Program-made: the position numbers and the translations under genes
The notes under the pieces: generated by a model
Told to the model about the DNA's origin: nothing
The model's database searches: none
What the model saw: only the letters and a program-made list of their open reading frames with translations
Origin: Candidatus Endomicrobiellum trichonymphae
GTDB taxonomy: Bacteria; Elusimicrobiota; Elusimicrobia; UBA1565; UBA9628
Assembly: GCA_943372155.1 (NCBI GenBank)
Contig: CALRXP010000001.1
Location: 1 to 43,471, forward strand
Direction: 5' to 3'
DNA: 43,471 bases
In this document: piece after piece, positions 3,258 through 36,525 of the stretch
Numbering within the stretch: the stretch's first letter is position 1
Layout of the letters: every line of letters starts with the position of its first letter

Positions 3258-4808
3258 TTAATTCTTCTCTTCGCGCCGACCGAGCTGGTCGAGAGTACGC
3301 CGCCAGACCTTGTAAAGATCCGTAGCCTTCCGTCGGCCGGGGGGGAGCATCTGGTCGAGCGTTTGCCACCAAAAGCCGCCGCACAGCGAGCGCGGCATGG
3401 CGCAGGACGCGGTGGCGTAGAGGATGGTGATGTCCTTGCGACCGCCGTCCACGTCGTCGGGGGCGAGCCACCAGTAGCCTTTGAGCTCCTCTTTCTCGAC
3501 GTAGCCCAGGCTTGAGACCATGAGCTTTTGCGCCGGCATCGCGTCGCCGACCGCGTCGAAGGCGCGCTCGAAACCCATGCCCAGCGGATTGTCCTCGGGC
3601 TGGATGCTGACGCCCACGACGTCGAGGTTCCGGCCGAAGCCGCGCTTGACCTGCACCGGCAGCCAGGTCGACAGGGCGTGCTCGGCGTCGGGCGCGGTCT
3701 CTTCCCAGGCGTAAACGGTCGCGACGGTCTCGAGCGCCGGGTCGAGCTCCTTGACCTTGTTGGCCCCCGCGGAATAAATGCGGTAGACCTGCTCCGGGGT
3801 GAACGGCGCCGAGGCGCCGCCGAGCCAGTCGCCGTTGAGCTCGGTGCCGACCTCCCAGCTTGAGATCTTTCCGCGGAAGTGAAGAACGAGATTCTTCGTG
3901 CGCTCCGCGTACAGCTCGGGGGTGAGCGTCTTCGGCCACGCGGTTGCGTCGAGCACGCAGCCCATGACCTTGACCTTGTTCTTGGCGAGCTCTTCGATCA
4001 CGCCGTCGTATTCGTTGAACGAACGCAGGGATGAATAGAGGAAGTCGGTGGAGTTGGGGCGGAACACAAGGCGCACCCAGTCCGCGCCGGAGCGGCGCAC
4101 GGCCTCGGCGATCCAGTCCAGGTCGTCGAGGCGCTTGAGTAGGTTCTCGTCGAGCGTGAGGCCGAAGCGCAGGCCGGGAGCGCGGCGTTCATCGAGCGCG
4201 TGCTGGAGGCCGTGCTCGAATAGCATCTTCTCCCACGCGAGCGCGGTTTTCTGCACGGCTTTTTGATAGGCCTTCACGCGCGCGGGCGTTTCCTTCTGCC
4301 GCGCGGCCTCGGCCATCGCGTCCTTGGCGTCGTCGGCCAGCTGCTTGGCCTTCTTGCCGGGTTTGTACAACGGCTGCCAGTCGCTGAGCCGCCGCTTCCA
4401 GGAATCTTTGAAGCGCGCGTACTGAGTGACGGCGATTTCCTCGTCGAGAAAGACGAGCTCGCCGTCTCCGAAGCCGGGGCCGCCCTTGTCCGCGCCGACC
4501 GCGTTGTAGCCGTCTTCGTCGACGGGCCAGACGAGCTCGAGACGGACGCGCTCGGCTTTTTCCCAGGTGCCGAGCACGAGCTTGCCCTGCTGCGACAGCT
4601 TCAGGCGCTGGCGCGGGACCTTGCCGTCGGTCGAGACGGCCCAGATCGCGAGCTTTTCGAGGTCGGGAGATTTTTCGTCGGCGCGCGACAGGCGGCGCGC
4701 GAGTCCGGGAGCGTCGAGCGCCTCGCCTTTGGCGTCGAACGCGAACAGCTTGACCGACGCGGCGCGCGCGGGCGCGGCCAGCAACAGTACGAGGAACAGC
4801 GTTTTCAT
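3258..4808 (-). CDS. secreted protein with a C-terminal TIM-barrel glycoside-hydrolase-like domain (function tentative)
   Basis: C-terminal 516 codons of track ORF 3258..5423, starting at the ATG at 4808 (MKTLFLVLLLAAPARA signal peptide). This start makes an ATGA overlap with the upstream gene's stop. The SWEVGTELNGDW segment resembles the WE-x-G-N-E acid/base strand of clan GH-A hydrolases. The upstream 205 codons of the track ORF are Arg-rich out-of-frame read-through. Confidence 0.7.
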   Translation of the reverse strand: MKTLFLVLLLAAPARAASVKLFAFDAKGEALDAPGLARRLSRADEKSPDLEKLAIWAVSTDGKVPRQRLKLSQQGKLVLGTWEKAERVRLELVWPVDEDGYNAVGADKGGPGFGDGELVFLDEEIAVTQYARFKDSWKRRLSDWQPLYKPGKKAKQLADDAKDAMAEAARQKETPARVKAYQKAVQKTALAWEKMLFEHGLQHALDERRAPGLRFGLTLDENLLKRLDDLDWIAEAVRRSGADWVRLVFRPNSTDFLYSSLRSFNEYDGVIEELAKNKVKVMGCVLDATAWPKTLTPELYAERTKNLVLHFRGKISSWEVGTELNGDWLGGASAPFTPEQVYRIYSAGANKVKELDPALETVATVYAWEETAPDAEHALSTWLPVQVKRGFGRNLDVVGVSIQPEDNPLGMGFERAFDAVGDAMPAQKLMVSSLGYVEKEELKGYWWLAPDDVDGGRKDITILYATASCAMPRSLCGGFWWQTLDQMLPPGRRKATDLYKVWRRTLDQLGRREEKN

Positions 4809-5434
4809 CGTTGCCCCCTGCGGCGCCAGGCGAGCTTGATGTCGCTCCAGTGGCCCGGACCGAAATAGATTAAGTACGCGGACAGCCCCGACAGCAGTCG
4901 AGCGCGCCCGGCCGCGTCGCCGCCGAGCAATTGGATCGCGGTCAGCGCGGCGGCGATCGCCGCGAGCCAGCGCAGCTTGACGGGAATGACGAACATCACC
5001 AGCACCTCGCGCTCGGGCGCCAGGCGCGCGAAGGCGAGAAAGTTGGCCAGGTGGATCGGGCCGTTGTCGCCGATCGCGCCGGTGAGGAGGGCGGCGGCGG
5101 TGGACATCAAGGCGCCGATCGCGAGGAACATCGTGAGCTTGAATTCGCCCCAAGCCGCTTCGAGCGCGCTGAGGATGGCGAACACCATCACGAGCCAGAG
5201 CAGCATCCAGATCATGTTCGACTCGAGCGGGGGGACGATGAGGAAGGTGGCTATCCGCCAGACCTGGCCGTGAAGCAGGGCGTCGGGATCGAGGGCCAGG
5301 GCCGCGACGAATTCTGGCTTGGAGGCGGCGAGCAGGGCCGCCGCGGCGGTCATCGCGGTCAGCAGGCCGGGCAGTCCGGGCACGGCCAAAAATCCGAGCC
5401 GTCGTTCGAGGCGGTCGACCCAAGCTCCGTCCAT
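4805..5434 (-). CDS. polytopic inner-membrane protein (rhomboid-like fold suspected; function unknown)
   Basis: 209-aa ORF with about 6 hydrophobic spans. The QVWRIATFLIVPP segment resembles the conserved WR-containing segment of rhomboid/derlin-like proteins, but I cannot place the Ser/His catalytic motifs in the expected order. Translationally coupled to the downstream secreted protein. Confidence 0.6.
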   Translation of the reverse strand: MDGAWVDRLERRLGFLAVPGLPGLLTAMTAAAALLAASKPEFVAALALDPDALLHGQVWRIATFLIVPPLESNMIWMLLWLVMVFAILSALEAAWGEFKLTMFLAIGALMSTAAALLTGAIGDNGPIHLANFLAFARLAPEREVLVMFVIPVKLRWLAAIAAALTAIQLLGGDAAGRARLLSGLSAYLIYFGPGHWSDIKLAWRRRGQR

Positions 5435-5486
5435 GGCCGCCAGAATAGCATAAGCGTGTTACGCATTTAATTGGTAAAAATAGGTC

Positions 5487-6380
5487 ATGGATTGGATCGG
5501 GGAGCTAAAGCGCGCGGGTCTTTCGCCACTTCGCGACGAGCCGCTCGCCAAGCACACGAGCTTTAAGATCGGAGGGCCGGCGGACGCGTTCGTGACCGCG
5601 ACGACGCGCGGCCAGGCCGCGGACGCGCTGAGGATCGCGCGGAAGGGGGGCGTCCCGGTCTTTTTTCTCGGCTGGGGCTCGAACCTGCTCGTGCGCGACG
5701 GCGGAATCCGCGGGCTCACGTTGGCGCTCGGCGGCGATTTCGAGAAGATCGAATTCCCCGGCGGAGAATTGGCGCGCGCGGGGGCGGCGGTCCGGGTTCC
5801 GCAGCTCGTCGTGAGCTGCGCCGAGCAGGGGCTCTCGGGGCTTGAGCCGATCGTGGGCGTGCCGGGCGCGGTCGGCGGAGCTCTCGTCATGAACGCGGGC
5901 ACGCGCGAAGGGGAGATCGGGACGTTCGTGGAGGAGGTCGAAATCCTCGCTGCGGATGGCACTCCAAAGACCGTCAACCGCAGCGAGCTAATATTCGGAT
6001 ATCGTTCTAGTAATCTCGGGAAAACGCTCGTTTTATCGGCGTTGCTCCGGTTGAAGCGCGGGGTCAAAGCTGATATAATGGCCGTCGTCGCCAAGCAGCA
6101 GAAGAAACGCCTTCAAACCCAGCCCATCCATACCTATAACGTGGGATCCACTTTTAAAAATCCGCCCGGTCGTTTCGCCGCGCAAATGATCGAGCACTCC
6201 GGCCTGAAAGGCCATGCCGTGGGCGGAGCGCGCGTCTCTCCGATGCACGCCAACTTTATCGAGAACTTCGCCGGGGCCAAGGCCTCCGATGTCCTCGCTC
6301 TCGTCGACCTCATCTCGGAGCGGGTCCGCGCGGAAAGCGGCGTGAAGCTCGAGCTCGAGATGAGGGTCGTCGGTGAATAA
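5487..6380 (+). CDS. murB: UDP-N-acetylenolpyruvoylglucosamine reductase
   Basis: 297 aa. LAKHTSFKIGGPADAFV, GWGSNLLVRDGGIRG and GSTFKNP are classic MurB FAD-binding and active-site segments. First gene of the plus-strand block. Confidence 0.93.
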   Translation: MDWIGELKRAGLSPLRDEPLAKHTSFKIGGPADAFVTATTRGQAADALRIARKGGVPVFFLGWGSNLLVRDGGIRGLTLALGGDFEKIEFPGGELARAGAAVRVPQLVVSCAEQGLSGLEPIVGVPGAVGGALVMNAGTREGEIGTFVEEVEILAADGTPKTVNRSELIFGYRSSNLGKTLVLSALLRLKRGVKADIMAVVAKQQKKRLQTQPIHTYNVGSTFKNPPGRFAAQMIEHSGLKGHAVGGARVSPMHANFIENFAGAKASDVLALVDLISERVRAESGVKLELEMRVVGE

Positions 6381-7173
6381 CTCCGCCAACCGGCGCCGCT
6401 TCCGCGTCGTCGCCCGCCCGAAGGACAAGGCCCGCCGCGTCCGCGCGGTCGCGGCCGTCGCGGTGGTCGGAGCGCTGGGCGCCATCGCCTACGTGACCGT
6501 GCGAAAGCTCGCGGCCGACTTCCGGATGCCCGTCGTCTCAGCCTCGCGCGCCGAAGACGCCGCGCTCGTCGAAGGCCCGGAGCCGCTCCGCGCCCTCGCG
6601 CAGGCCGCGGCCGACGCCGTCGCCGGCACGGCCGGCGACAAGGCCGAGGCGCTCAAGACTAAATTTCCCGCCCTCGCCGACGTGACGGTGCGCCGCAACT
6701 GGACGGAGAAGACGGCGACGTTGACCTTGGTCGTCCGCCGGCCGGTCGCGGCCGCCACGCGCCACGGCAAGCCGGCCGGATTTTTGGGCGACGACGGCGT
6801 GGTCTTCGCCGCGCCCGAGGGCGCGTTCGCGCTGACCGGACCGTCGGTCGAGGTCGGCGGCGCGTCGGCGGGCGAGCTGTCTGCGCTCGCGCGCGAATGG
6901 CCGACGCTCGCGGCTCCGGGAGCCTTCCCGGCGGCTCTGACGGGGATGATGTACGGCTCGCCCGATAACGGCTGGGAGGCGAGCCTCGCCGACGGCACGA
7001 AGGTGCAGTGGGGCCGTCTCGAGTGGACGAAGGAAAAGCTCTCACGGTTGTCCGAGGCGGTGGCCGATGCCAAGACGAAGGAGCCCGGCGCGTTCTCCGC
7101 GGATCTTCGCTGGTTCGAAGACGGGAAAGTTCTGCTGAAGCCGGCCGTTGCGCAAGTGGGGACAATGAGATGA
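6373..7173 (+). CDS. ftsQ: cell division protein FtsQ-like (single TM plus POTRA-like region)
   Basis: GTG start overlaps the murB stop. Basic N-terminus, one TM (AVAAVAVVGALGAIAYV), then a periplasmic domain. Sits between murB and ftsA as in dcw clusters. Confidence 0.75.
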   Translation: MNNSANRRRFRVVARPKDKARRVRAVAAVAVVGALGAIAYVTVRKLAADFRMPVVSASRAEDAALVEGPEPLRALAQAAADAVAGTAGDKAEALKTKFPALADVTVRRNWTEKTATLTLVVRRPVAAATRHGKPAGFLGDDGVVFAAPEGAFALTGPSVEVGGASAGELSALAREWPTLAAPGAFPAALTGMMYGSPDNGWEASLADGTKVQWGRLEWTKEKLSRLSEAVADAKTKEPGAFSADLRWFEDGKVLLKPAVAQVGTMR

Positions 7174-15740: not shown

Positions 15741-16810
15741 CCCATCGCGTCGCCGACGAAGTCCGCCTGAAGCCGGTCAAGAGCCCCTGGGCCTTGGCCG
15801 GCGGCTGGCTGAGCGCCCGGGCCGTGACGATCGCGGCCGGGCTCGCCGTGGTCTCGCTGTTCGGGACCTTGGCGTTCATGCTGCGGGAGAGGCCCCTTCC
15901 CCGCCGGCACGCGGACTTCCCGGCGCCGCCGCAGGTGGCGACGCAGATTCAAGCGGCGCAGGAACGCCTCAAGGCGAACCCCCAGGACATCTCGGCGCTC
16001 GTCGAGCTCGGGACGCTTAAGTTCGAAAAGGGCAAGGACTCCTACGTCGAGGCGATCGGCGATCTTGAGGAGGCGCGTGACTTAGGAGCCCTCGACCCGC
16101 GCATCTTCTACTGTCTCGGCATCATGTATCAGGAAGAAGGGCTGTTTCCGTTCGCCCTCACCGAATACAAACGGTTCCTGCGTCACTACCCCGAAGACAA
16201 GGAAGTCCGCATGCTCACGGCGAAGCTCTATTACCGCATGGGGCTGTTCAACGAGGCCATCGGCGAGTACGAGCGCCTGAAATTTCAGGACGCCTCCGAT
16301 CCGCTCATCGAGGAGAATCTCGGCTTGAGCCTGCTCAGCGCGAAGCTGATCGATCGCGCCGTCGCCTCTTTCGCCCAGATGAAGACCCACGGCGGCGACT
16401 ACGCCCTGCGCGCGGAGTATTACCTCGGGCTGATGGCCCTCGACGCGGGCAAGTTCCAAGAGGCGTACGATCACTTCGTCGCGGTCGGCGCTCAGCCCCT
16501 CGCGGGACTCGAGCCTCAGCGCGTGCCCACGGGGCTCGCCATGGCCGCGCAGAAGCTCGGCAAATGGGAAGAGGCGCGCCAGGCTTGGGAAACGGCCCTG
16601 AAGGCTGCCCCTGGCGACGCCAAGGCCACCGCGGCGCTCAAAGAAGCCACGCGTCGCGCCGCCGCCGCCAAGAAGATCGCCGACGCCGCGGTCGAGAAGG
16701 CCAAGCGCGAGGCGGACCGCGCCGCGGAGAAGGCCAAGAAAGAAGCGGAGAAGGCCGCCAAGGAAGCCGCGAAAGAGGCCGCGAAGAAAGCGGCGGCCGA
16801 GAAGAAGTGA
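15737..16810 (+). CDS. membrane-anchored TPR protein with a Lys/Ala/Glu-rich C-terminal tail
   Basis: Track ORF 15542..16810. An in-frame TTG at 15737 overlaps the rpsA stop and follows GGAGGA. One TM (AVTIAAGLAVVSLFGTLAFML), TPR-like units, and the tail AAAKKIADAAVEKAKREADRAAEKAKKEAEKAAKEAAKEAAKKAAAEKK. Confidence 0.7.
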   Translation: MTHRVADEVRLKPVKSPWALAGGWLSARAVTIAAGLAVVSLFGTLAFMLRERPLPRRHADFPAPPQVATQIQAAQERLKANPQDISALVELGTLKFEKGKDSYVEAIGDLEEARDLGALDPRIFYCLGIMYQEEGLFPFALTEYKRFLRHYPEDKEVRMLTAKLYYRMGLFNEAIGEYERLKFQDASDPLIEENLGLSLLSAKLIDRAVASFAQMKTHGGDYALRAEYYLGLMALDAGKFQEAYDHFVAVGAQPLAGLEPQRVPTGLAMAAQKLGKWEEARQAWETALKAAPGDAKATAALKEATRRAAAAKKIADAAVEKAKREADRAAEKAKKEAEKAAKEAAKEAAKKAAAEKK

Positions 16811-18003
16811 GCGCTCTCGCGGCGCTCGCGCGCCGCTACGGCACTCCTCTGTACGTCTACGACGCGGCCGTGGTGCGCGCCCGCTACCGGGCCCTGCACG
16901 GCGCTTTCACGCGGCCCGTGCTCGTCTGCTACGCGCTCAAGGCCAACTCGAGCAAGGCCGTCGCCTCCGTGCTCGCGCGCGAGGGCGCCGGCGCGGACAT
17001 CGTCTCCGGCGGCGAACTGCTCCGCGCGCGCGCGGCGGGATTCACTCCGTCTCGCATCGTGTTCTCCGGCGTCGGAAAGACCGAGGAAGAGATGGCCGCC
17101 GGCCTGCGCGCGGGCGTGAAGGCTTTCAATATCGAGTCCGGAGAAGAGCTCGACGCGCTGGCGCGCGTCGCGGGACGCCTCAAGAGACCGGCCCCCGTGT
17201 CCATCCGCTTAAACCCCGATATCAACGCGAAGACGCACCCGCACATCACCACCGGGCGGGCCGAGAACAAGTTCGGCGTGGAGACCCAGGAAGCCCTGGC
17301 GCTGTACCGGCGCGCGGCCCGGGACGCCCGCCTGCGCGTCGTGGGCGTCCAATGCCACATCGGCTCGCAGATCACCTCCTTAGCCCCCTATAAACGCTCT
17401 GCGCGGGCCGTGGCGGCCCTGGCCAAGGGCTTGAAGGCCTCGGGCATTCCGCTCGCCTTCGCGGACCTAGGAGGGGGCCTGGGCATCTCCTACAAGGACG
17501 AGACGCCGCTCGACCCGTCGGCCCTCGTAAAGACCTTGGAAGCGGCGTTCTCCGATCAGCCGGAGCTCGAGCTTCTCGTCGAGCCGGGTCGCTACCTCGT
17601 CGCCGACGCGGGGCTCCTGCTCACCAGGGTCCTCTACCGCAAGCAGACCTCGAAGCGACGCTTCGTCATCGTCGACGCGGCCATGACGGATCTCCCTCGT
17701 CCCGCCCTGTATAACGCGTGGCATCCCGTCGAGGTCGTCTCGCCCCGTCGGGGAAAAAAGACCATGGCGGACGTCGTGGGACCCGTCTGCGAGTCGGGAG
17801 ACTTCCTCGCGCGGCAAAGACCGCTTCCGCCTCTCGAGAGGGGGGATCTGCTCGCCGTGACCAAGGCTGGAGCGTACGGCTTCGCCATGAGCAGCCAGTA
17901 CAACTCGCGTCCTCGCGCCGCCGAAGTCGTGGTGGACGGGGGGAAAGCGCGCCTGGCGAGGCGAAGGGAGACGTTCGCGGATCTGACGAGGGGGGAGCTC
18001 TAG
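16807..18003 (+). CDS. lysA: diaminopimelate decarboxylase
   Basis: Track ORF 16564..18003. The GTG at 16807 (GTGA overlap) gives VSALAALARRYGTPLYVYD. It has the PLP-lysine region YALKAN, HIGSQ, EPGRYLVA and CESGD. Confidence 0.9.
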   Translation: MSALAALARRYGTPLYVYDAAVVRARYRALHGAFTRPVLVCYALKANSSKAVASVLAREGAGADIVSGGELLRARAAGFTPSRIVFSGVGKTEEEMAAGLRAGVKAFNIESGEELDALARVAGRLKRPAPVSIRLNPDINAKTHPHITTGRAENKFGVETQEALALYRRAARDARLRVVGVQCHIGSQITSLAPYKRSARAVAALAKGLKASGIPLAFADLGGGLGISYKDETPLDPSALVKTLEAAFSDQPELELLVEPGRYLVADAGLLLTRVLYRKQTSKRRFVIVDAAMTDLPRPALYNAWHPVEVVSPRRGKKTMADVVGPVCESGDFLARQRPLPPLERGDLLAVTKAGAYGFAMSSQYNSRPRAAEVVVDGGKARLARRRETFADLTRGEL

Positions 18004-18004
18004 C

Positions 18005-18253
18005 GTGGCGAAAAACAAAAACACCATGAAGAAGGAGGCGCAGGCCCCCGCGCTTCCCTCTGAGGCCCTCTCATCCCGGGGTAAGGTCCTGGCGGGGGCG
18101 GGGGGAGCCCTCGTGATCGCCGGTTTCGTCCTCTTGTCTTTCGCTGATGCCATGGGCCGCAATCTTCCTGCCTTGGTTTCTCCCTTCCTTCTGATCGGCG
18201 GCTACGCCGCGATCGGCCTTGGTCTTTTTCTTCCGCCCGAAAAAACCATCTAA
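18005..18253 (+). CDS. small two-TM membrane protein, unknown function
   Basis: 82-codon ORF (GTG at 18005, or ATG at 18026) directly after lysA. Two hydrophobic spans (GALVIAGFVLLSFA, LVSPFLLIGGYAAIGLGLFL). Last gene of the plus-strand block. Confidence 0.55.
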   Translation: MAKNKNTMKKEAQAPALPSEALSSRGKVLAGAGGALVIAGFVLLSFADAMGRNLPALVSPFLLIGGYAAIGLGLFLPPEKTI

Positions 18254-18280
18254 CGCGGCGACCTTCCGCTGTTGAGTTTT

Positions 18281-18870
18281 CCTGATGGCCTTTTTTCGGT
18301 CCGCGGCCTAACCGCCTCCCGACCCCGGGTCTTCGATGGTTTTTTTCGCGCGCCCCCTTTCGACCCTTTTTTCCTTCCTTGGTTTTTTCGGCGCCCCCCG
18401 GCTGGCCCCGAGTTGGTCGATTTCTTGCCTGGTTTTCCGGCCTCTGACCCCTAGTCTCTTCCATGGTTTTTTCGGGCCTACCCCCGGCACCCCCTGATCC
18501 CTGAAATGTTGCCTGGTTTTTCGGCCTCCAACCCCTAGGGTCTTTGATGGTTTTTTCGGGCCTACCCCCTGCCGGCCCGGATCCCCGAAATGTTGCCTGG
18601 TTTTTCGGGTCGTTTACCCTAGGGTCTTAGGTGGTTTTTTTGGGGGGTGCTTTTGGGGATCCGAGCTGCCCAAAAACTTGCCAACTTTCCGGGCTCCTTT
18701 CATGGTCTTTTCGGCCTCATGGCCGATTTGGGGGTACCCTGCCCCTGGGCCTTTCATGGTTTTTTTGGCTCATCCCGGCAGCTCCATGATCCCGGTATTC
18801 TTGCCAACTTTTTGGCTGGTTTCCGTGGGGTGCGGCCGGCGCCGCCCCGATTTTCTGCCAACTTTTGGGG
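18281..18870 (+). repeat. degenerate tandem repeat array with an 84-bp period, each unit carrying two GG(T)4-7CGG cores
   Basis: T-run starts at 18433, 18467, 18517, 18551, 18601 and 18635 alternate 34 and 50 bp apart, giving an 84-bp period. The copy at 18425-18508 matches the copy at 18509-18592 at 71 of 84 positions in my ungapped hand alignment. A third copy at 18593-18676 shares the first 50 or so nt. More diverged copies flank on both sides. No ORF survives across units. Confidence 0.85.
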
Positions 18871-19004
18871 GGCGTTCGACTGCTAATTTAGAATATCTCA
18901 CAAACCGTGTTGTTTTGCTTAAAATCGCGTTATCCGTACGAGGTAAATCGCTCGAAGTTCTGTTGGAGTATTGCGTATGCTGAATTGGCCATACCCCATC
19001 CAGA

Positions 19005-19032
19005 TGTAACATAATAAATATTATCATAAGTA
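19005..19032 (-). other. dif: candidate dif site (XerC/XerD chromosome dimer resolution site)
   Basis: The minus strand reads ACTTATGATAA-TATTTA-TTATGTTACAT. The right arm matches the E. coli XerD arm TTATGTTAAAT at 10 of 11 positions. The left arm ends in GATAA like known XerC arms, and the spacer is 6 bp and AT-only. It lies in a local AT-rich patch exactly where the plus-strand and minus-strand gene blocks converge. Confidence 0.65.
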
Positions 19033-19645: not shown

Positions 19646-19770
19646 CATATGTCATGAAAAAGGTCTACCGGCTGTGGATATGTCGTGTACAACTCAAATG
19701 GGCGAACGTGATTGTTTGTATACGTCATGTTTGATGTCTTTATAAAAATACATAAGACATATACGACACG
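19646..19770 (-). promoter_or_regulatory. AT-rich upstream region with a repeated 11-bp motif NATAYGTCRTG (operator- or iteron-like)
   Basis: Plus-strand copies are CATATGTCATG (19646-19656), GATATGTCGTG (19677-19687) and TATACGTCATG (19719-19729). Spacings are 31 and 42 bp, about 3 and 4 helical turns. An inverted core GACATAT lies at 19756-19762. The cluster sits directly upstream of the 19632 start codon. Confidence 0.5.
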
Positions 19771-20060
19771 TTAAGGACAGCGAGCGGTGAAAGGCTTGGG
19801 GATAACTTTGGGGATTCCTCGACGGAGAATCGGAGATTCCCCTCCCCCCTCGCAGCCTTGCCGGCACCCGGGGTCGAGGCCGGATTTAAAGACAGGAGCG
19901 GCTCCAAATCGAGCGGAAACGGCCCTAGGCTGGACGCGGGATCGGAAGGGCGGCAAGGGCCTGAAACGGGGGTCTAAACGGCCTTGGTGGACCCGCGGCG
20001 GGCGCGGGAAATCGGCGGATTACGGGGGTTCGCAGTGGGCTGGCCGCACTGATGATAATC

Positions 20061-35931: not shown

Positions 35932-36525
35932 ATGAAGCGGCTCTGGCCTTTGCCCGTTCTCCTCCTTTTGGCGCTCCCCTCGTTCGCCCAGGAAGGCGAC
36001 GACGCGGCCCCGACGGAGGACGCGCCTCAGGAAGAGAAGCTGGCGCCGCCCGAGGGCGAATCCGCCCCGAGCGAGGAGGCCGCGCCGAATTCCGACGCCG
36101 CGCCGAGCACGGACGCCGCTCCTAACTCGAACGACGCGCCGCCCGCGCCGGAAGCCGGCGCGGACGAAGGCGCGAAGCCCGAGCCCGAGACGGCCGACGC
36201 CGCTCCCTCCAAGGAGGAGCCCATCGTCAGCGTCAAGGCGGTGTCGGCTCCCTCCGAGGAAGGGGACGAGAACGACGTCGCTCCGCTGGTCGAGAAGAAA
36301 AAAGTGACGCCGACCGCGACGATCACGAAAACGCCGAAGGCGGGCGCCAAAGGTAAAAAGGCCGCCGTCAAAGGCGCGAAGCCGGCCAAGGGCAAGAAGG
36401 GCGCGAAGGTCGCTGCCTCTCCCGTCGTGAAAACGAAGGCCCCGGTGCTGGTCGCCGACGCCCCGCCTCCCCCCGCCCCGATTCCCGCCGTGCCGCTCAC
36501 GCCGATCACGCCGAGAAATCCCTAA
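35932..36525 (+). CDS. secreted low-complexity protein (acidic Ala/Pro/Glu/Asp half, basic Lys/Ala half, Pro-rich end)
   Basis: Track ORF 35431..36525. The ATG at 35932 follows GGAGG and gives signal peptide MKRLWPLPVLLLLALPSFA. It has AAPNSDAAPSTDAAPNSNDAPP repeats, then KTPKAGAKGKKAAVKGAKPAKGKKGAKVA. Confidence 0.6.
   Translation: MKRLWPLPVLLLLALPSFAQEGDDAAPTEDAPQEEKLAPPEGESAPSEEAAPNSDAAPSTDAAPNSNDAPPAPEAGADEGAKPEPETADAAPSKEEPIVSVKAVSAPSEEGDENDVAPLVEKKKVTPTATITKTPKAGAKGKKAAVKGAKPAKGKKGAKVAASPVVKTKAPVLVADAPPPPAPIPAVPLTPITPRNP

Follow-up and report, generated by a model that had tools for sequence, protein, structure and literature searches.

The stretch analysed here, referred to as the window, comprises 43,471 nucleotides of Candidatus Endomicrobiellum trichonymphae (Elusimicrobiota; GenBank assembly GCA_943372155.1, contig CALRXP010000001.1, positions 1 to 43,471), and our subject is an array of degenerate repeats that lies next to a dif-like site within it. 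On the plus strand, hisC, cmk, plsC, rpsA, the gene of a TPR protein and lysA (16807-18003) are followed by a small open reading frame (ORF) for a membrane protein and then by a non-coding region, in which the array, an AT-rich conserved block and the dif-like 28-mer succeed one another. Beyond this region, the minus strand carries an ORF of 168 amino acids, here termed ORF-R, and then genes for outer-membrane-protein-like products. About 12 genes on each side, rpsA and ftsQAZ among them, are transcribed toward the site, and in every genome compared the genes converge on it in a terminus-like arrangement. For lysA, the best relatives reach 92% identity, and every match with a name belongs to Elusimicrobiota. 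The coordinates of the features are given in Table 1.

Table 1 Features of the repeat array, the dif-like site and their surroundings in the window.
Feature	Position	Strand	Basis or remark
Small membrane-protein ORF, 82 amino acids	18005..18253	+	ATG at 18026 as alternative start
Inverted B motif (CCGAAAAAACCA on the plus strand)	18237..18248	-	Far end of the array; overlaps the small ORF at its 3' end
B-motif array (CTTTCATGGTYTTTTYGG)	18284..18770	+	TGG starts at 18286, 18337, 18380, 18464, 18548, 18632, 18703 and 18757
A-type copies (TTGCCTGGTTTTTCGG)	18425, 18509, 18593	+	Interleaved with B motifs; repeat search and sequence
Weaker second copy of the palindrome, CCCCTAGGG	18533-18541		Sequence reading
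Perfect palindrome ACCCTAGGGT	18616..18625		Longer form AGACCCTAGGGTCT in relatives
Three A-type palindromic sites, consensus AAAGTTGCCAACTTTT	18678, 18801, 18856 (within 18678..18869)	+	Repeat family and alignment
AT-rich conserved block, GACTGCTAATTTAGAATATCTCACAAACCGTG ... CGTTATCCGTACGAGGTAAATCGCTCGAAGTT	18878..18959	+	Alignment; fixed distance to the dif core
dif-like 28-mer, ATGTAACATAA-TAAATA-TTATCATAAGT	19004..19031		Two 11-bp arms and a 6-bp centre
ORF-R, 168 amino acids	19126..19632	-	N-terminal beta-beta-alpha and C-terminal winged-helix domain (predicted); directly beside dif phylum-wide
Promoter-like site for ORF-R	19667-19639	-	Promoter scan
DnaA-box-like 9-mer ATATCCACA	19673-19681	-	ORF-R promoter region (19673..19805)
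AT-rich inverted repeat, ATGTCTTAT and ATAAAGACAT	19760-19752 and 19743-19734	-	Between the DnaA boxes
DnaA-box-like 9-mer TTATCCCCA	19797-19805	-	Same orientation as the box at 19673-19681

Within the array, Tandem Repeats Finder reported a period of 84 across 18374-18644 (2.6-2.8 copies, 80-83% matches), and a repeat search identified two adjoining 84-nt copies, 18425-18508 and 18509-18592, with 85% identity (71/84) and decaying copies on either side. Direct reading of the sequence placed the starts of T-runs, which are 4-7 nt long, at 18433, 18467, 18517, 18551, 18601 and 18635, an alternation of 34 and 50. The period, the alternation, the identity and the decay of the outer copies had all been described in an initial annotation, made by a model from the letters and the ORF list, and they were reproduced here, as was the dif-like site some 135 bp past 18870. 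The repeat unit is composed of two parts, a B motif, (C)TTTCATGGTYTTTTYGG, and the A motif, the latter taking a palindromic form nearer to dif. The conserved core of the repeat is the B motif of ~17 bp, present in about eight copies of the same orientation and one inverted copy at the far end. Its core TGGTTTTTTCGG, with up to one mismatch, matched seven times in the window, each time inside 18237-18768, compared to 0.16 matches in shuffled sequences; none of 100 shuffles reached seven. The functional region extends from about 18237 to dif.

Two kinds of palindrome accompany the B motifs. The perfect one or its longer form is kept in five relatives (loci L002, L006, L008, L009 and L011), and, being loopless, it would resemble the binding site of a dimeric protein more than an RNA hairpin. 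A hairpin CCCGAAA-N12-TTTCGGG proposed earlier is present at 18584-18609, but is not conserved in the relatives. The array is also unlike a CRISPR array (clustered regularly interspaced short palindromic repeats), as had been recognised before: its repeats are degenerate, two motif types alternate, the spacing is irregular and positions are kept between genera. No conserved ORF spans it and the motif occupies all three minus-strand frames, in agreement with the earlier statement that it holds no credible ORF.

For a close comparison, we used the window together with the orthologous loci of seven further genomes (eight in total), which share 75-92% lysA identity. Synteny was unchanged in all seven, with gaps of 750-1000 bp. 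In the alignment of the eight genomes, the invariant columns were those of the B motifs, the TGCCAACTTTT palindromes, the GACTGCTAATTT block and dif, and the spacers were poorly conserved; within ±10 kb of the relatives' loci, the motif was confined essentially to this gap. As orthologous motif positions are conserved while the spacers drift, the array is not a copy-number-variable tandem repeat; it is no young repeat but old and under selection. A pattern scan of 185,579 species genomes then gave a broad set of 69 loci, all from Elusimicrobia. In about 60 of the 69, ORF-R, dif and the array occurred together, with ORF-R identities ranging from 96% down to 38%, and in the same arrangement: the dif-like site comes 50-430 nt after the ORF-R stop codon, and ~250 nt beyond dif the array begins in the expected orientation. 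The motif array thus lies consistently beside dif, a point on which the initial annotation had wished for related genomes. Across the loci we counted ~352 forward and 55 reverse copies of the B motif; the reverse ones cluster at the distal end, and most relatives have an inverted copy at the equivalent place (about -740 from dif). Positions of the motif outside the T-run are conserved as well (CTTTCATGG, information 0.7-2 bits), and an ATG inside it occurs in only about half of the copies. A literature search, which covered part of the literature, yielded no account of such an element.

Most close relatives have exactly the same dif core, GTAACATAATAAATATTATC, and it can be recognised in about 62 of the 69 loci. 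Its arm facing the array (TTATGTTAC) agrees at 10 of 11 positions with the XerD arm of E. coli; the dif sequences of E. coli and B. subtilis served for this comparison, and the arms were assigned by sequence. One relative, L016, carries a real insertion at dif, a 2.26-kb segment (4585-6859) that is flanked by an intact dif adjoining the array and a hybrid dif, its left arm replaced, adjoining ORF-R. The segment holds three ORFs of 294, 242 and 154 amino acids, none of which matched a Pfam family. This layout is that expected of an IMEX-like mobile element (integrative mobile element exploiting Xer) integrated through Xer recombination, and the accompanying duplication of the site suggests that a recombinase uses the dif-like sequence. 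A scan of viral contigs with the dif core returned a single chance match, inside a phage gene at 39.5% GC.

The distances between these elements turned out to be strongly constrained. In every one of 64 loci (64/64), 128-131 bp separate the start of the GACTGCTAATTT (GACTGC) block from the dif core, and the sequence of the 55 bp immediately before dif (-60 to -5) shows no conservation. From the last B copy to the block there are 120-122 bp in 39 loci and 131-133 bp in 16, which places this copy 251 bp away from dif, or farther by one helical turn. Palindromic A-type sites recur across loci at -207 (or -217) and at -153/-154 from dif; in the window, these are the sites at 18801 (-207) and 18856 (-153). 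From one B copy to the next, the distances concentrate at 52-54, 62-64, 71-75, 82-85, 92-96, 103-105, 113-118 and 124-128 bp, and their Rayleigh R peaks at 10.5 bp (R = 0.50, mean phase -0.2 bp). For B positions relative to dif, R was 0.54 at 10.5 bp compared to 0.09-0.21 at 10.0, 10.3, 10.7 and 11.0 bp. The per-locus median R amounted to 0.76 compared to 0.39 for random positions (maximum 0.50 in 500 simulations), and the mean phase was concordant among loci (R = 0.75); as the loci are phylogenetically related, nominal p-values are inflated, for which the per-locus statistic is a partial correction. The quantisation of the spacing at 10.5 bp implies that insertions and deletions are tolerated mostly as whole helical turns. 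The B motifs are in register with dif and occupy a single face of the duplex; the 84-bp period of the window (8.0 turns) is one local instance of the 10.5-bp rule. The 84-bp unit first described is therefore real in this genome but only local, and what is conserved is the ~17-bp motif at multiples of 10.5 bp. As expected of accessory DNA, all of this lies on one side of the core at a fixed and phased distance (block at -130±1, motifs in the 10.5-bp register), and no motif is found on the ORF-R side.

Helical register with dif is a feature of the DNA duplex, which bears on the possibility that the region acts as RNA, either as a long non-coding RNA or, as the initial annotation had considered, as tandem small RNAs; both could carry U-rich (plus strand) or A-rich (minus strand) protein-binding motifs. 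A short repeat in one orientation would suit a protein-sponge RNA too, and both flanking genes could read into the array. Searched against Rfam at gathering and permissive thresholds, the array gave nothing relevant (best E-value 1.3-1.5). The z-scores of single-sequence folds (-1.1 and -1.25) were unremarkable, and consensus folding of an 800-column array alignment with RNAalifold reached near-null energies of -8.8 and -5.2 kcal/mol on the two strands, with a penalising covariation term, so that covariation among aligned units, suggested earlier as a check, lends an RNA fold no support. The conserved block (-0.4 and -1.5 kcal/mol, both strands) showed no structure. A sigma-70 scan found no promoters of individual units and a weak match at 18897-18925, within the AT-rich block; the number of terminators equalled the shuffled expectation. 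Inspection of the array by eye for sigma-54, IHF and FtsK-orienting polar sequence (KOPS) look-alikes brought up no consistent match. On these results and on the register, which belongs to double-stranded DNA, the small-RNA reading is unsupported; the register and the spacers of fixed length and variable sequence would be meaningless for RNA, and we regard an RNA-level function as highly improbable.

The array could also be a non-functional remnant, namely a decayed repeat-protein gene, the scar of repeated Xer integrations or the local copy of a dispersed family of repetitive extragenic palindromes (REP) or miniature inverted-repeat transposable elements (MITE), all of which had been raised in the initial annotation. 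One minus-strand frame is indeed open through two units (HFGDPGRQGVGPKKPSKTLG...), and dif sites gather integrated elements, as in L016. A coding repeat was nevertheless rejected: the motif falls in all three frames, the T-runs vary in length, only about every second copy contains the inner ATG, and no coding alignment restores a frame. Integration scars fare no better, given positions conserved across genera and over phylum-level divergence, units free of dif remnants and the different look of the L016 insertion; moreover, the motif is more conserved than the spacers. As to dispersal, the unit was found nowhere in the other ~42 kb of the window and almost nowhere in ~400 kb of the relatives' flanks. 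When metagenomes were scanned with an 18-mer of the motif, all multi-copy, high-GC matches were this same lysA/ORF-R/dif locus, and the remaining ones were single chance matches in unrelated contigs of lower GC content. The remnant explanation is thus close to refuted. Among the metagenome contigs L082-L161, most lone exact CTTTCATGGTTTTTTCGG matches resemble the reverse complement of a gene start (GAAAAAACC ATG AAA G), so that the motif seems by chance to mimic a common A-rich translation-start context. The idea that it is a general translation-start context was rejected as well, since other genes of the window do not share it.

Phased T-tracts could act through DNA shape, that is, by static curvature without any dedicated binder, and an element of this kind could attract nucleoid proteins or topoisomerase IV or position the dif region. 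T-tracts at integral helical turns are what such a function would call for. In the Bolshoy-Trifonov wedge model, 18330-18780 was the most curved 451-bp segment of the window, with a ratio of end-to-end distance to contour length of 0.53 compared to a background mean of 0.92; the lowest ratio outside the array was 0.685, and 1 of 300 shuffles was equally curved. Among the relatives, the most curved 400-bp window lay inside the array in 22 of 62 loci, where ~5 were expected, and near dif in many others, though not in all. The bend suspected at the outset is therefore predicted to be extreme in the window and enriched in the relatives, but curvature as a universal property had to be rejected; in this model it is a frequent and not an invariant feature of the array, and in 40 of 62 relatives some other segment is more curved. 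The conservation beyond the T-run, together with the two kinds of palindrome and the 30-bp block, indicates sequence-specific recognition, and we consider shape without a dedicated binder distinctly unlikely.

A candidate for such recognition is encoded directly across dif. ORF-R homologues are 75-96% identical in the close relatives, a conservation above the level of lysA, and an exhaustive search assigned the family 276 representative clusters. ORF-R matched no family in Pfam (E<=10), NCBIfam or PHROG and had no notable sequence match in the PDB. An AlphaFold2 model built with 87 homologues (predicted local distance difference test, pLDDT, 80.7) has a beta-beta-alpha module at the N-terminus, which a disordered linker connects to a C-terminal H-H-H-beta-beta-H domain. 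Its top Foldseek matches were the MarR family, Sso10a-2, SSV1 F-93, the centromere-binding AspA and RosR, at marginal E-values (from 2e-3) and a reported probability of ~1. The C-terminal domain is thus predicted to adopt a winged-helix DNA-binding fold, and ORF-R is the first candidate for a binder of the array.

The promoter region of ORF-R contributes a further conserved feature. In 55 loci (L013-L080), the 33 kb upstream of ORF-R contain 95 DnaA boxes (consensus TTATCCACA, up to one mismatch), 2.9 per kb compared to 0.05 per kb elsewhere (~58-fold). All but one of them (94/95) have the same orientation, and they occupy two conserved positions on either side of AT-rich DNA, ~50-70 and 163-200 nt ahead of the start codon. 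The simplest reading suggested by these sequences is that DnaA regulates ORF-R; an origin-like element is less likely. The inverted repeat between the boxes may serve as an operator. GTCTTA/TAAGAC repeats akin to it occur in ORF-R promoters of relatives, and its half-site resembles the GGTCTT of some B copies and the AGACCCTAGGGTCT palindrome. B and A motifs themselves, as would be used for autoregulation through the same site, are absent from the ORF-R promoter (0 and 1 of 36 loci).

The DnaA boxes nonetheless raise the possibility of an origin- or plasmid-like module, in which iteron-like repeats would be read by ORF-R as initiator or regulator, the dif-like site would resolve multimers, and the boxes with their AT-rich DNA would form a replication origin or a locus that titrates or controls DnaA. 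Such a module would account for two conserved boxes of one orientation around AT-rich DNA, for the AT-rich block, the phased direct repeats and the neighbouring winged-helix gene, and for a minimum of the cumulative GC skew at 18-19 kb. Iterons (RepA/RepE/pi) and the centromeres sopC/parC share with the array repeats of ~17-20 bp in the same orientation on one helix face, which in those systems are bound cooperatively by winged-helix or similar proteins, and an adjacent gene for the actual or candidate binder, as well as AT-rich DNA and DnaA boxes nearby, and a centromere-binding protein, AspA, is among the structural matches of ORF-R. However, the array is spaced irregularly at 5-9 turns (52-160 bp in 10.5-bp steps), in contrast to the ~2 turns of iterons (~22 or 43 bp in tandem for iterons and centromeres), and ORF-R has a single winged-helix domain with a small N-terminal module and matches no Rep or Par family. 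The DnaA boxes number only two and lie upstream of ORF-R, on the side of the gene that faces away from the array, and their promoter position (-49 from the start codon) fits regulation of this gene by DnaA. About 12 genes per side would run head-on into forks leaving an origin here, the GC skew decomposed by strand lacks a clean sign change, and the context of converging genes surrounds a 28-mer that is a good homologue of dif and is used by a mobile element. We therefore judge an origin-like module very unlikely.

We favour a different interpretation, for which we see the chances as about evenly balanced: the array is an architectural protein-binding array at the DNA level that serves as an extended accessory arm of dif. 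It would act as double-stranded DNA, with short T-tract motifs of one orientation on one helix face. Together with the AAAGTTGCCAACTTTT palindromes and the GACTGCTAATTT block, these motifs would form an accessory arm of ~650-750 bp on the XerD-like side of dif. Sequence-specific proteins, with ORF-R as the first choice, would bind the phased sites cooperatively and, by wrapping or bending the arm, assemble a defined nucleoprotein complex. This complex would bring the Xer recombinases into place on the core or activate them there, or else it would act as a filter for topology or direction. The motifs are conserved and oriented, their distances are fixed and quantised at 10.5 bp, and they are linked to dif and ORF-R; beyond this, we infer that ORF-R does the binding and that Xer recombination, and not another terminus function, is what the arm controls. 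Of the roles originally listed for the repeats, protein binding, architecture and bent DNA agree with the conservation, the 10.5-bp register and the curvature, whereas membership in a MatP/matS-type system found no support.

The closest functional precedents, by analogy, are two plasmid recombination sites and one transposon site. At cer (ColE1) and psi (pSC101), accessory DNA wraps around PepA together with ArgR or ArcA and so builds a defined synapse that activates and directs recombination (10.64898/2026.02.23.706985). In the IRS of Tn4430, the direct repeats DR1-DR2 beside the TnpI core (IR1-IR2) set the architecture of the synapse, the order of strand exchange and the selectivity of resolution (PMC2847244). 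In cer and psi as in the IRS, accessory DNA gives the synapse a fixed geometry, determines the recombinase pair that is first to act and enforces resolution. Like the array, cer and psi combine a dif-like core with one-sided, non-coding accessory DNA in a fixed geometry, for which helical phase would be expected to matter. In contrast to these plasmid-borne sites, the array is chromosomal, phylum-wide and set in conserved synteny; it measures ~650-750 bp instead of ~180 bp, consists of ~8-12 copies of one asymmetric motif plus palindromes, flanks the XerD-like arm (by sequence) and not the XerC arm, and has as its neighbouring candidate a new winged-helix protein in place of PepA, ArgR or ArcA. 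The dif-like core and the one-sided phased DNA are thus shared with cer/psi, and adjacency to the XerC arm and the compact plasmid form are not. The IRS of Tn4430, the arm-type sites of lambda attP and the res subsites II/III of Tn3/gamma-delta also place accessory motifs beside a recombinase core; theirs bind additional recombinase subunits or domains and span 100-240 bp, whereas the motif of the array is unlike the dif arms and the array is several times longer. Being chromosomal, longer, built from an asymmetric motif with palindromes and located on the XerD-like side, the array was not filed as a member of the cer/psi or Tn4430 families.

Several points weigh against an accessory arm. No chromosomal dif is known to need accessory DNA; the task falls to FtsK, as at E. 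coli dif. The arm flanks the XerD-like side, unlike that of cer/psi (XerC side), and is 3-4 times longer. ORF-R may instead bind the palindromes or the repeat in its own promoter, since B is asymmetric and winged-helix dimers usually prefer palindromes. GC skew across the 43 kb is ambiguous between terminus and origin, also after splitting by gene strand. To these add the relatedness of the loci, the dependence of the predicted curvature on wedge parameters and its patchy occurrence. A more complete picture, in which Elusimicrobia possess a dif core with a phased arm of ~700 bp wrapped by DnaA-regulated ORF-R for dimer resolution or terminus management, is accordingly tentative, and we hold it to be rather doubtful as a whole.

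The polarity of the motifs and their position where genes converge in every locus would also fit a barrier at the terminus, at which the array, bound by ORF-R, pauses replication forks or stalls or unloads SMC complexes at dif. Precedents for the latter version are the archaeal TrmBL2/A-tract boundaries at dif and XerD-dependent unloading of SMC in Bacillus. With ~352 forward and 55 distal reverse copies, the few inverted ones at the far end would supply the opposite polarity. Tus-Ter of Enterobacterales and RTP-Ter of Bacillus subtilis likewise consist of polar sites next to the gene of a small DNA-binding protein, which in the case of RTP is also a winged-helix protein; tus and rtp adjoin a Ter site and are autoregulated from it (PMC10331603). 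In Thermococcus, A-tract DNA and a roadblock protein stall SMC on both sides of dif (PMC11840125). However, there is no sequence relation to either Ter system: ORF-R has no Tus or RTP sequence match and shares only the generic winged-helix fold with RTP, which is outside its top 50 Foldseek matches. Known Ter sites lie scattered far apart and face one another across the terminus, whereas the forward copies and few distal reverse copies of the array crowd into ~600 bp; all of them are on the same side of dif, and neither the interval from dif to ORF-R nor the sequence past it contains any. Neither the fork nor the SMC version explains the helical register with dif, a barrier would require neither this register nor a fixed spacer of 130±1 bp, and we consider it unlikely.

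KOPS and SRS motifs resemble the array in that they are polar and point to dif, and in E. coli it matters from which side FtsK reaches XerD. Yet KOPS, which are 8-mers, occur throughout both replichores and have opposite polarity on either side of dif, whereas the array motif is confined to one 600-bp block: all seven matches in the window lie in 18237-18768, there are almost none in the flanks of the 69 loci, and no inverted polarity appears beyond dif.

What restricts Xer recombination at chromosomal dif to dimer resolution is so far understood only in terms of FtsK/KOPS, as worked out in a few model bacteria, and control by accessory DNA is regarded as a plasmid solution. A functional arm would represent a second, architecture-based way of controlling the terminus, through a phylum-wide chromosomal dif with a phase-locked arm and a conserved DNA-binding protein dedicated to it, and its built-in topological or directional filter would replace or supplement control by FtsK/KOPS. 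It would then be the first chromosomal counterpart of the cer/psi mechanism, with a new dif-associated protein family; if the barrier were correct instead, the locus would amount to a third independent fork-trap or SMC-boundary system. In addition, the family of ~276 clusters, now annotated as hypothetical, gains a lead to its function, and motif, 10.5-bp register and landmarks at -130 and -251 provide a genomic signature that is easily scored and makes the proposal testable although the organisms are uncultured.

Other features of the locus concern its borders. The small membrane ORF invariably lies between lysA and the array and measures 83-90 amino acids in all relatives, with 62-88% identity in metagenome loci (tblastn); it matched no Pfam, NCBIfam or PHROG family. 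It is conserved phylum-wide, its last codons (PPEKTI*) come from the inverted B motif, and its start region (CAAAAACACCATGAA) likewise resembles an inverted B motif. In L040 (reverse complement, ~4499-5801), a MITE-like insertion of ~270 bp with perfect terminal inverted repeats of ~34 bp (GGACCTGTGACATAATTATATAGACAATTTGG ...) lies between lysA and the array. On the other side, the region beyond ORF-R is variable in relatives: it carries ParE/Phd and TacA-like toxin-antitoxin genes as well as a large serine recombinase whose neighbours are phage-like (L009, 13052-13524 and 18026-19660; L011, 14132-14407; L012, 20087-20413), which is consistent with a zone that gathers mobile DNA. Finally, short in-frame tandem repeats also occur inside coding regions of the window, at 16724-16803 (periods of 21/12 bp) and 36062-36141 (36/18 bp), the former encoding the Lys/Ala/Glu-rich tail of the TPR protein upstream of lysA.

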